This document shows, one piece after another, positions 1 through 2,270 of a stretch of DNA of 2,270 nt. Position 1 is the stretch's first letter; every line of letters begins with the position of its first letter. The translations under genes were made by a program, and so were the position numbers. Origin of the DNA: Escherichia coli (lineage in GTDB: Bacteria > Pseudomonadota > Gammaproteobacteria > Enterobacterales > Enterobacteriaceae); NCBI RefSeq assembly GCF_003334255.1, contig NZ_QOWU01000138.1; one strand, 5' to 3'. The notes under the pieces were generated by a model. That model searched no databases and was not told where the DNA came from. It saw only the letters and a program-made list of their open reading frames with translations.

Positions 1-25
1 GTAAGCGTAAAGCCAATGCCGTCTG
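1..25. repeat. Left terminal inverted repeat (IRL) of the IS66-family element; inner boundary approximate
   Basis: The window starts with 5'-GTAAGCGTAAAGCCAATGCC..., the terminal motif typical of IS66-family inverted repeats. The inner extent cannot be fixed because the right inverted repeat is not in the window for comparison. Confidence 0.55.
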
Positions 26-34
26 TAACACCTG

Positions 35-72
35 CTCCTTGCAGACTAAATTAGAGCTCCTTCTAAATTAGA
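35..72 (+). promoter_or_regulatory. Subterminal imperfect tandem repeat (CTCCTT[GCAGA]CTAAATTAGA / CTCCTTCTAAATTAGA) overlapping a candidate tnpA promoter; possible transposase-binding or promoter region
   Basis: Seen in sequence: CTCCTT at 35-40 and 57-62; CTAAATTAGA at 46-55 and 63-72. A TTGCAG -35-like hexamer lies at 39-44, with AT-rich -10 candidates (TCTAAA 62-67, TAAATT 65-70) 17-20 bp downstream. Functional role is inferred only. Confidence 0.25.
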
Positions 73-73
73 C

Positions 74-77
74 GGAG
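74..77 (+). promoter_or_regulatory. Shine-Dalgarno sequence (GGAG) for tnpA
   Basis: GGAG at 74-77 lies 8 nt upstream of the ATG at 86. Confidence 0.5.
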
Positions 78-85
78 TTCTATTG

Positions 86-520
86 ATGGATAAACCTACA
101 GACTGGCGCTCCGGAACCCGCCGGATATTTTCTAATGAATTTAAACTTCATATGGTTGAACTGGCTTCGAAACCAAATGCCAATGTTGCACAACTGGCCC
201 GGGAACATGGCGTTGATAACAACCTGATTTTTAAATGGCTACGCCTCTGGCAAAGAGAAGGACGTATTTCTCGTAGAATGCCTCCAACTATTGTAGGCCC
301 TACAGTATCACAATCTTTTCCGGCCTCTCCGACTCTGGTTCCAGTGGAACTTATCGACACCCCGCGCTGTGCTACAGATGCTCCTGCTCCGGAGGCATTA
401 TCAGTTGCTTGTGCAGCTTCCTGCCATGTGGAATTCCATTACGGTAAAATGATGCTGGAAAATCCTTCACCAGAGCTGCTCACGGTGTTGATCCGTGAGC
501 TGACCGGGAGGGGACGATGA
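86..520 (+). CDS. tnpA: IS66-family TnpA (orf1): small helix-turn-helix transposase accessory protein
   Basis: The six-frame track gives ORF 83..520, but 83 is a TTG. The ATG at 86 has GGAG 8 nt upstream and is the preferred start, giving 144 aa. The N-terminal region (RRIFSNEFKLHMVELASKPNANVAQLAREHGVDNNLIFKWLRLWQREG) resembles the HTH 'transposase_8'-type domain of IS66 orf1 proteins. The stop TGA overlaps the tnpB start. Confidence 0.85.
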   Translation: MDKPTDWRSGTRRIFSNEFKLHMVELASKPNANVAQLAREHGVDNNLIFKWLRLWQREGRISRRMPPTIVGPTVSQSFPASPTLVPVELIDTPRCATDAPAPEALSVACAASCHVEFHYGKMMLENPSPELLTVLIRELTGRGR

Positions 521-867
521 TTTCACTCCCATCAGGTACCCGTATCTGGCTCGTTGCCGGCGTTACTGATATGCGTAAATCCTTCAACGGTCTGGGGGAG
601 CAGATACAGCATGTGCTGGATGATAACCCCTTCTCCGGTCACCTGTTTATCTTCCGTGGCCGACGGGGAGACATGATTAAAATCCTGTGGGCTGATGCTG
701 ATGGTCTGTGCCTGTTCACCAAACGCCTTGAGGAAGGTCAGTTTATCTGGCCTGCGGTGCGTGACGGTAAGATATCCATTACCCGCTCGCAACTGGCAAT
801 GCTCCTCGATAAGCTGGACTGGCGTCAGCCAAAAACATCCCGCCTTAACGCACTGACAATGTTGTAA
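517..867 (+). CDS. tnpB: IS66-family TnpB (IS66 Orf2-like protein), 116 aa; function in transposition not defined
   Basis: ATG at 517 overlaps the tnpA stop (ATGA at 517-520) and is preceded by GGGAGGGG at about 503-510. Size and sequence (IWLVAGVTDMRKSFNGLGEQIQ...GHLFIFRGRRGDMIKILWADADGLCLFTKRLE) are typical of IS66 Orf2 proteins. Stop TAA at 865-867. Confidence 0.88.
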   Translation: MISLPSGTRIWLVAGVTDMRKSFNGLGEQIQHVLDDNPFSGHLFIFRGRRGDMIKILWADADGLCLFTKRLEEGQFIWPAVRDGKISITRSQLAMLLDKLDWRQPKTSRLNALTML

Positions 868-890
868 AAAACTCCTGACCGCATTATAAA
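862..890 (+). promoter_or_regulatory. Candidate sigma70-like promoter in the tnpB-tnpC spacer (TTGTAA -17 bp- TATAAA)
   Basis: Seen in sequence: TTGTAA at 862-867 (overlapping the tnpB stop codon) and TATAAA at 885-890 with a 17-bp spacer. The predicted transcription start would fall at about 896-898, at the tnpC ATG. No experimental support; hexamer match only. Confidence 0.18.
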
Positions 891-897
891 AACGGCC

Positions 898-2270
898 ATG
901 AGTCAGAAATACCTCATTCGCATCGCTGAGCTGGAAAGGCTGCTCTCTGAGCAGGCTGAAGCCCTCCGTCAGAAAGACCAGCAACTGAGTCTGGTTGAAG
1001 AGACGGAGGCCTTCCTGCGCTCTGCACTGGCACGTGCCGAAGAAAAGATCGAAGAAGATGAACGGGAAATAGAGCATCTGCGGGCTCAGATAGAAAAACT
1101 GCGCCGGATGCTGTTCGGAACCCGTTCTGAAAAACTGCGTCGTGAGGTTGAACAGGCTGAAGCCCTGCTGAAACAACGCGAGCAGGAAAGCGATCGTTAC
1201 AGTGGGCGTGAGGATGACCCGCTGGTTCCCCGCCAGTTGCGACAGTCGCGCCATCGTCGTCCGTTACCGGCACATCTCCCCCGTGAAATATACCGCCTGG
1301 AGCCTGAAGAAAGCTGTTGCCCGGAGTGTGGCGGTGAGCTGGATTATCTGGGGGAAGTCAGCGCAGAACAACTGGAACTGGTGAGCAGCGCCCTGAAAGG
1401 GATCCGCACAGAACGGGTAAAAAAAGCCTGTACAAAATGTGACTGCATCGTTGAAGCACCGGCACCATCCCGTCCGATAGAGCGTGGTATCGCGGGCCCG
1501 GGGTTACTTGCCCGCGTGTTAACGGGAAAATACTGCGAACACCTGCCACTGTATCGTCAGAGTGAAATCTTTGCCCGCCAGGGTGTCGAACTGAGCCGTG
1601 CCTTACTCTCCAACTGGGTTGATGCGTGCTGCCAGTTAATGACTCCGCTGAATGATGCCCTGTACAGTTATGTGATGAACACCCGCAAGGTTCACACTGA
1701 TGACACACCAGTAAAAGTACTGGCACCGGGCAGGAAGAAGGCGAAAACAGGATATATCTGGACGTATGTCCGGGATGACCGAAATGCCGATTCGCCAGAA
1801 CCTCCGGCGGTCTGGTTCGCCTACTCACCGGACCATCAGGGTAAACATCCGGAGCAACACCTTCGTCCCTTCCGGGGTATCCTGCAGGCAGATGCGTTCG
1901 CAGGTTACGATCGGCTGTTCAGTGCCGAACGTGAAGGCGGCGCGTTGACGGAAGCAGGATGCTGGGCTCATGCGCGGCGCAAAATCCACGATGTATATAT
2001 CAGTACCAAAAGCGCGACGGCGGAAGAAGCACTGAAACTAATCGGCGAACTGTACGCCATTGAGCACGAAATACGCGGGTTGCCGGTGTCTGAACGCCTG
2101 GCGGTCAGGCAAATGCAGAGTAAACCGCTACTGACTTCCCTGTATAAGCTGATGCAGGAGAAAGAACACACGTTATCGAAAAAATGCCGTCTGAGAGATG
2201 CGTTCCGGTATATCAGGAAGCACTGGGTTGCGTTGTGCAACTTCTGTGATGACGGTCTGGCGGAGGCGGA
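898..2270 (+). CDS. tnpC: IS66-family TnpC DDE transposase, 3'-truncated by the window edge (457 codons present, no stop)
   Basis: Open frame from ATG 898 to the window end with no stop, which is why it is absent from the ORF track. Translation begins MSQKYLIRIAELERLLSEQAEALRQKDQQL... (heptad, Leu/Glu-rich coiled coil). It has Cys clusters CCPEC (1315-1329) and CTKCDC (1429-1446), candidate catalytic residues in HTDDTP (1699-1704), QADAFAGYD (1891-1911) and EAGCWAHARRK (1951-1980), matching the IS66 transposase DDE signature. The antisense ORFs across this span are shadows. Confidence 0.92.
   Translation, partial: MSQKYLIRIAELERLLSEQAEALRQKDQQLSLVEETEAFLRSALARAEEKIEEDEREIEHLRAQIEKLRRMLFGTRSEKLRREVEQAEALLKQREQESDRYSGREDDPLVPRQLRQSRHRRPLPAHLPREIYRLEPEESCCPECGGELDYLGEVSAEQLELVSSALKGIRTERVKKACTKCDCIVEAPAPSRPIERGIAGPGLLARVLTGKYCEHLPLYRQSEIFARQGVELSRALLSNWVDACCQLMTPLNDALYSYVMNTRKVHTDDTPVKVLAPGRKKAKTGYIWTYVRDDRNADSPEPPAVWFAYSPDHQGKHPEQHLRPFRGILQADAFAGYDRLFSAEREGGALTEAGCWAHARRKIHDVYISTKSATAEEALKLIGELYAIEHEIRGLPVSERLAVRQMQSKPLLTSLYKLMQEKEHTLSKKCRLRDAFRYIRKHWVALCNFCDDGLAEA

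Follow-up and report, generated by a model that had tools for sequence, protein, structure and literature searches.

The ATGA overlap of tnpA and tnpB in ISEc43 is a family-wide feature of IS66 elements and probably couples tnpB translation to tnpA translation

The DNA analyzed here, called the window throughout, is a stretch of 2,270 bp from Escherichia coli. It represents the left 2,270 bp of ISEc43, an insertion sequence of the IS66 family with a total length of 2,541 bp. Over its whole length, the window showed 100% DNA identity to copies from E. coli that carry the annotation "IS66-like element ISEc43 family transposase"; upstream of this gene, the same copies are annotated with an "IS66 family ... 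accessory protein TnpB" and with a "transposase". The identity as ISEc43 and as a member of the IS66 family follows from this 100% DNA identity together with the family models for TnpB and TnpC described below. Sequence related to the window was present in 3,312 of 5,426 complete E. coli genomes. A search for known RNA families gave no hit in the window at E ≤ 1.

The window harbors the genes tnpA, tnpB and tnpC in this order, with tnpC following after a short spacer. All genes and features that are given with window coordinates are on the plus strand, except for the terminal repeat, which was assigned no strand. The tnpA-tnpB-tnpC layout is shared with the IS66-family elements used for comparison (IS66, IS679, ISEc8, ISEc23, ISEc43), and no difference of substance from the canonical organization of the family was seen in the window. 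The tnpA gene (86–520, stop codon TGA at 518–520) is present in the ORF list (83/86–520, 145/144 aa, C-terminal end ...ELTGRGR) and in RefSeq, and encodes an accessory protein of 144 aa with an N-terminal helix-turn-helix. Its product matched the Pfam domain HTH_Tnp_1 (E = 2.7e-10), while the scores for the two NCBIfam models of IS66 TnpA were both below the cut-off (68 bits for a cut-off of 74, and 62 bits for a cut-off of 150). The position upstream of tnpB and the helix-turn-helix domain fit an IS66 TnpA. The tnpC gene (898–2270) is cut by the end of the window; the full gene has 1,614 nt and corresponds to window positions 898–2511. Its product is a DDE transposase of the IS66 family, which matched NF033517 (transpos_IS66) with E = 8e-106 and 354 bits (cut-off 180) and is named "IS66-like element ISEc43 family transposase" in RefSeq.

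The tnpB gene (517–867, stop codon TAA at 865–867) lies directly upstream of tnpC, as is typical for IS66 elements, and encodes a protein of 116 aa with the N-terminus MISLPSG, which belongs to the IS66-family accessory proteins (PF05717/NF033819). The only NCBIfam match was to IS66_TnpB (119 bits, cut-off 50), homologs of the protein carry PF05717, and RefSeq also notes an accessory protein. An RNA-guided TnpB of the IS200/IS605 type, with about 400 aa, a RuvC-like domain and an OrfB_IS605-type match, was ruled out by the length of 116 aa and by the sole match to IS66_TnpB. For annotation this check is of relevance, since the tnpB gene of this element encodes the IS66 accessory protein and not the RNA-guided TnpB nuclease.

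The start of the window is the exact end of the insertion sequence. The left terminal inverted repeat, which begins with GTAAGCGTAAAGCC, covers positions 1–20. The ISEc43 copy of E. coli SCU-104 (L001) has the terminal inverted repeats of the GTAAGCG type and the 8-bp target site duplication that are found in IS66 elements: its ends read GTAAGCGT... and ...ACGCTTAC, the left end matched the reverse complement of the right end (GTAAGCGTCAACGG...) at 17 of 30 positions with the first 8 being identical, and the 8-bp duplication CGAAAGGC was present on both flanks. This copy is located within the transposase gene of an IS3-family element (L001 1114–1498 and 4042–5033) and is adjoined by a truncated iroN gene, representing a nest of one insertion sequence in another in the context of a virulence island.

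Between the inverted repeat and the Shine-Dalgarno (SD) region and start codon of tnpA, the window harbors two exact copies of CTAAATTAGA (46–55 and 63–72). This direct repeat comprises 10 bp with a start-to-start distance of 17 nt, and each copy includes the -10-like sequence TAAATT; it is possibly a promoter or a protein-binding site. The SD-like sequence GGAG (74–77) is positioned 8 nt 5' of the tnpA ATG. ISEc23-type elements and other IS66 relatives from E. coli and Salmonella showed 91–92% identity in a stretch beginning at about position 418 of the window and comprising the 3' end of tnpA and tnpB (window 418–800). Window positions 1–417, harboring the left end and the rest of tnpA (its 5' two-thirds), gave no match to those relatives, even in distant blastn mode. 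This pattern suggests that the IS66 family is a mosaic in which 5' parts of tnpA may have been exchanged.

At the junction of tnpA and tnpB, positions 511–520 read gggacgATGA. The tnpB start codon ATG (517–519) and the tnpA stop codon TGA (518–520) form an ATGA overlap (517–520, spacing of -4 nt), in which T518 and G519 are common to both codons. The start of tnpB thus overlaps the stop of tnpA in the way typical for IS66 elements, and the reading frame of tnpB is -1 with respect to that of tnpA. The identical copy L001 shows the same 4-nt overlap between the RefSeq coding sequences 1586–2020 and 2017–2367. Both the ATGA overlap and the placement of tnpB in the -1 phase are given as family features in the ISfinder description of IS66, where they belong to the definition of the family; the description of this hallmark dates from 2001. 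The SD sequence of tnpB, GGGAGGGG (506–513), lies within the last tnpA codons (GGG AGG GGA, encoding G R G). The junction has the sequence features of the NTGA class of gene pairs, with co-directional reading frames, an NTGA overlap and an SD inside the upstream frame. The GGAGG core (507–511) is placed 5 nt before the tnpB ATG. [quoted passage not shown] 2019 (PMC6728339). A consensus scan for promoters and terminators at the junction gave only matches at background level. The original prediction had named the two genes, the overlap with its coordinates and a G-rich SD-like stretch inside the end of tnpA. All coordinates were confirmed by the sequence, the ORF list and RefSeq, the gene names are right in the IS66 sense as judged by annotation and NCBIfam/Pfam evidence, and the G-rich stretch is the one at 506–513.

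A single overlap of this kind is unremarkable, because co-directional genes of prokaryotes are spaced by NTGA more often than in any other way, and the abundance of this overlap has been attributed to the ease by which it evolves (PMC12548453). We compared the junction across the IS66 family. Diverse TnpB representatives were gathered and 21 were aligned, 80 genomic loci were fetched, and 10 plasmid loci were added. In every locus, we determined where tnpB starts and where the reading frame upstream of it ends. This resulted in 69 distinct junctions, 59 derived from genomes and 10 from plasmid loci. An NTGA overlap (ATGA, GTGA or TTGA) was present in 64 of them, with TnpB identities of 56–95%. 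In the genome set, NTGA was found in 56 of 59 distinct junctions (36 ATGA, 17 GTGA, 3 TTGA), and in the plasmid set in 8 of 10. The hosts belong to three phyla, Pseudomonadota (alpha, beta and gamma), Acidobacteriota and Cyanobacteriota. One locus with a TnpB of 94% identity (L003) is on a contig of 3,880 bp binned as a metagenome-assembled genome of Segatella copri (Bacteroidota); contamination of the bin by Enterobacteriaceae DNA is more likely than a true S. copri host.

Some junctions lacked the overlap of four bases. In L007 (376) the sequence is ATGC and tnpA runs on for 55 nt, in L011 (2439) it is CTGA and a standard tnpB start codon is absent, and in L014 (2501) an indel has removed the tnpB start; these are probably decaying or mutated copies. 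An ISEc8-like element on an E. coli plasmid (L087, 695–710) with a TnpA of 225 aa has cacTGATGAta at the junction. The stop codon of tnpA and the ATG of tnpB overlap there by a single base (TGATG, spacing of -1) and not by four, and ATGA is still present in a frame that is not used by tnpA. L088 is a decayed copy of the L087 type.

The 30 nt upstream of the tnpB start had diverged almost completely among the junctions, and apart from NTGA the junction was not conserved. As judged by this comparison, the retention of NTGA in 64 of 69 junctions amid diverged flanks exceeds chance. Of the NTGA bases, T and G belong to the start codon of tnpB, and A opens the codon for a conserved isoleucine (Ile2 of TnpB). 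NTGA is therefore partly frozen by double coding, and its retention is weaker evidence for selection on coupling than the raw count.

This double coding is also part of an explanation without any coupling, by which tnpB initiates at its own strong SD and the overlap is compact packing, frozen because T, G and A are already fixed by the start codon and Ile2. For the element analyzed here, de novo initiation is possible, since tnpB has a strong SD (-10.5 kcal/mol) at the optimal spacing of 5 nt and an ATG start. The high frequency of NTGA in prokaryotes and its attribution to easy evolution also fit this explanation, as does bioBF, an E. coli gene pair with ATGA that can be uncoupled (PMC6728339). 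However, independent initiation cannot be the general mode in the family, since most members keep the overlap without an SD and many have GTG or TTG as start codon. We found GTG or TTG in 20 of the 59 genome-derived junctions. A strong SD (≤-8.4 kcal/mol) was present in only about 6–10 of these 59 junctions and in about 10 of 60 loci, nearly all of them enterobacterial, and the SD score upstream of tnpB had a median percentile of 0.26 against the coding background over the family, which is no better than background. We therefore rejected the SD as a family-wide feature (strong in about 10 of 60 loci); with the strong SD confined to the enterobacterial clade, it is the overlap that is shared by the family. 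The missing SD and the weak start codons of most members make independent initiation of tnpB unlikely there, and the lack of such signals argues that tnpA delivers the ribosomes to tnpB. In addition, 13 of 14 native gene pairs with overlap or close spacing were coupled in a direct test (PMC6728339). Taking both sides together, we consider tnpB initiation without coupling to be an unlikely explanation.

Based on the sequence comparison, translation of tnpB probably depends substantially on translation of tnpA. Both genes would be translated from one mRNA. A ribosome translating tnpA would stop at UGA (518–520), whose U directly follows the A of the tnpB start codon AUG (517–519), and the strong SD GGGAGGGG could keep the 30S or 70S ribosome positioned there. 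Termination-reinitiation would be the most likely route, with the TnpA-making ribosome or its small subunit restarting on tnpB, and tnpB output would then follow tnpA translation. A passing tnpA ribosome may also melt local structure over the SD and the start codon. In the enterobacterial clade, reinitiation is probably supplemented by a certain amount of independent initiation at the SD. That NTGA, and not the SD, is conserved points to reinitiation as the general route to TnpB.

The published view of the family is very similar. In a passage citing Han et al. 2001, PMC3469429 assigns translational coupling and no frameshifting to IS66-family elements, and the same tnpABC organization is cited in other papers. 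Our literature search gave nothing specific on ATGA coupling or leaderless mRNA in IS66 elements. All three genes are reportedly needed for transposition of IS679, as found by Han et al. in 2001. [quoted passage not shown] 2019; these pairs encode cellular proteins and their coupling was measured, whereas tnpA-tnpB belongs to a mobile element and its coupling is deduced from the sequence. Coupling was not uniform among the E. coli pairs with ATGA: one of five (bioBF) was uncoupled and menDH was coupled to about 60%, and the role of the SD in the tested pairs ranged from essential to none (PMC6728339).

The original prediction further stated that such an overlap typically enforces stoichiometric expression of both proteins. 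This goes too far, because coupling makes translation of the second gene contingent on that of the first and does not set a ratio of 1:1, as illustrated by the coupled pairs rplJL with about 5:1 and atpEF with about 1:10 (PMC6728339).

We also considered that tnpA ribosomes act by unfolding and not by reinitiation. By this explanation, a hairpin hides the SD and holds the AUG in its loop, ribosomes translating tnpA open it, and a new 30S subunit initiates at tnpB. An RNA hairpin with -13.5 kcal/mol was indeed predicted for positions 500–535 (z = -2.0; 6 of 200 shuffled sequences folded as well). In the predicted structure, GGGAGGGGA (506–514) pairs with UUUC(A)CUCCC (521–530) and CUGA (500–503) with UCAG (532–535), by which the SD is paired with tnpB codons 2–5 and AUGA is placed in the loop. 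The hairpin was kept in the nearest relatives L002, L003, L005 and L010 (z of -1.5 to -2.8), and native arms paired slightly better than arms swapped between loci (mean difference of -1.3 kcal/mol; Wilcoxon p = 0.011, with no correction for phylogeny). Predictions for the start sites of E. coli pairs with strict coupling also show local structure (Huber et al., PMC6728339).

Other results did not support a conserved structure. In the covariation analysis of 16 junctions, 72% of cells were paired; the shuffled controls gave 70%, and 62 of 500 reached at least the native value. The stability over 59 junctions showed no excess in the family (mean z = -0.16). For the arms of the window, 37% of the swapped combinations paired as well as the native one. 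Furthermore, two motifs under separate constraints can account for the complementarity, namely the SD (GGGAG) and the codons for Leu-Pro (CUCCC) at TnpB residues 4–5. Since covariation and stability gave no signal and the arm-swap signal was weak, we did not accept the hairpin at 500–535 as a conserved structure. It is a possible structure by the folding model, and a mechanism based on its unfolding appears rather improbable compared to termination-reinitiation.

The -1 frame of tnpB relative to tnpA is also compatible with programmed -1 frameshifting as known for IS1 and IS3, in which slippage near the end of tnpA would lead to a TnpA-TnpB fusion protein. An internal SD can stimulate frameshifting, as in dnaX and prfB, and this was counted in its favor; the same applies to fusion genes joining tnpA and tnpB in frame, which exist in one natural lineage. 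However, a stop codon (TGA, 496–498) limits the open tnpB frame to just 18 nt before the ATG. The slippery heptamer in the frame overlap that is expected for IS1/IS3-type frameshifting was absent from positions 499–516 (GCTGACCGGGAGGGGACG), where no X XXY YYZ motif occurs in the tnpA frame. Conservation of the junction across the family, limited to NTGA, also argues against it. Together with the passage in PMC3469429 by which IS66 elements do not frameshift, the frame overlap of 18 nt and the lack of a heptamer led us to reject programmed frameshifting, which we regard as extremely improbable.

The fusion genes were considered in their own right. Several database proteins join the N-terminus of an IS66 TnpA to a TnpB domain. 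Most of these are singletons and could be due to frameshift errors, and we rejected them as general evidence. Only one cluster appears genuine; it comprises four diverged fused sequences (P0223, P0270, P0273, P0274) of 246–248 aa with the motif ...GSVAMIAFPSG..., encoded upstream of tnpC. Four diverged members cannot be attributed to a single sequencing error. This metagenomic IS66 lineage (L092, 2501–3244) has tnpA and tnpB as one reading frame of about 247 aa (HTH_Tnp_1 and TnpB_IS66), followed by tnpC. A joint action of TnpA and TnpB, as assumed in the original prediction, is plausible, and the natural fusion lineage supports a joint function.

Different features were found between tnpB and tnpC. 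The region from the end of tnpB to the start of tnpC (862–903) has -35-like and -10-like boxes and a predicted hairpin, and lacks an SD. TTGTAA (862–867), which includes the tnpB stop codon, is followed by 17 nt, by TATAAA (885–890), by another 7 nt, and by the ATG of tnpC at position 898, which is 30 nt after the tnpB stop. A -10-like hexamer (TATAAA, TAAACT or TAAAAT, sometimes with an upstream TG) ended 5–8 nt before the tnpC start in 38 of 62 distinct loci, while the frequency of such hexamers was about 0–3% at nearly all other offsets. Copies from Burkholderiales have the arrangement TTGTAA-N17-TAAACT-N6/7-ATG with a different spacer sequence. No paper and no Rfam family was found that covers this arrangement.

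The predicted hairpin at window positions 871–903 (-7.1 kcal/mol, z = -2.6) has the -10-like box in its loop and the tnpC AUG in its 3' arm. Spacer hairpins were also predicted for L082 (1145–1186; -12.2 kcal/mol, z = -5.0) and, with 10 perfect pairs, for L084 (1146–1187; -14.5 kcal/mol, z = -7.6). The spacer fold had a mean z of -1.65 where the hexamer is present versus +0.06 where it is absent. In the close clade, the proportion of paired cells was 79.5%, compared to 22–41% with slid partner columns, and two double changes were seen.

As modeled from these features, the spacer may act as an internal promoter from which a leaderless tnpC mRNA is made, and a fold-back may mask the AUG on read-through transcripts. 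Because the -10 box is in the loop of the hairpin, the transcription start would fall on the AUG or directly beside it, and the tnpC mRNA would lack a leader. Alternatively, the spacer palindrome could be an operator. Fold-back inhibition of transposase translation on read-through transcripts is known from IS10 and IS50. As in these elements, the spacer hairpin is predicted to pair the transposase start codon in longer read-through transcripts, and the putative promoter of tnpC would start inside the hairpin and produce transcripts without the 5' arm. Unlike in IS10 and IS50, the predicted tnpC transcript is leaderless or nearly so, with the promoter and the start site being predictions.

A tentative view, which we hold as less likely than its opposite, is that IS66 elements consist of two separately controlled units, a coupled tnpA-tnpB pair and a tnpC gene transcribed from an internal sigma-70 promoter with fold-back inhibition. 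In the first unit, NTGA would tie tnpA to tnpB, and in enterobacterial members a hairpin occluding the SD could make tnpB strictly dependent on tnpA translation. In the second unit, tnpC would be silent on the tnpAB mRNA, because the conserved hairpin pairs its AUG and an SD is absent, and would be expressed from the conserved TTGTAA-N17-TATAAA promoter. If this view of tnpC holds, translational coupling is confined to tnpA and tnpB and does not extend to all three genes.

The ATGA overlap of tnpA and tnpB is a real, family-wide and already described part of the IS66 layout, and its interpretation as translational coupling is in essence the published one and is probably right. The comparison of junctions documents that NTGA, rather than the SD, is what the IS66 family conserves. 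If the view of tnpC as a separately controlled gene is true, it would explain how the transposase is kept at a low level and shielded from read-through transcription in a very widespread family of insertion sequences, the regulation of which has received little study.
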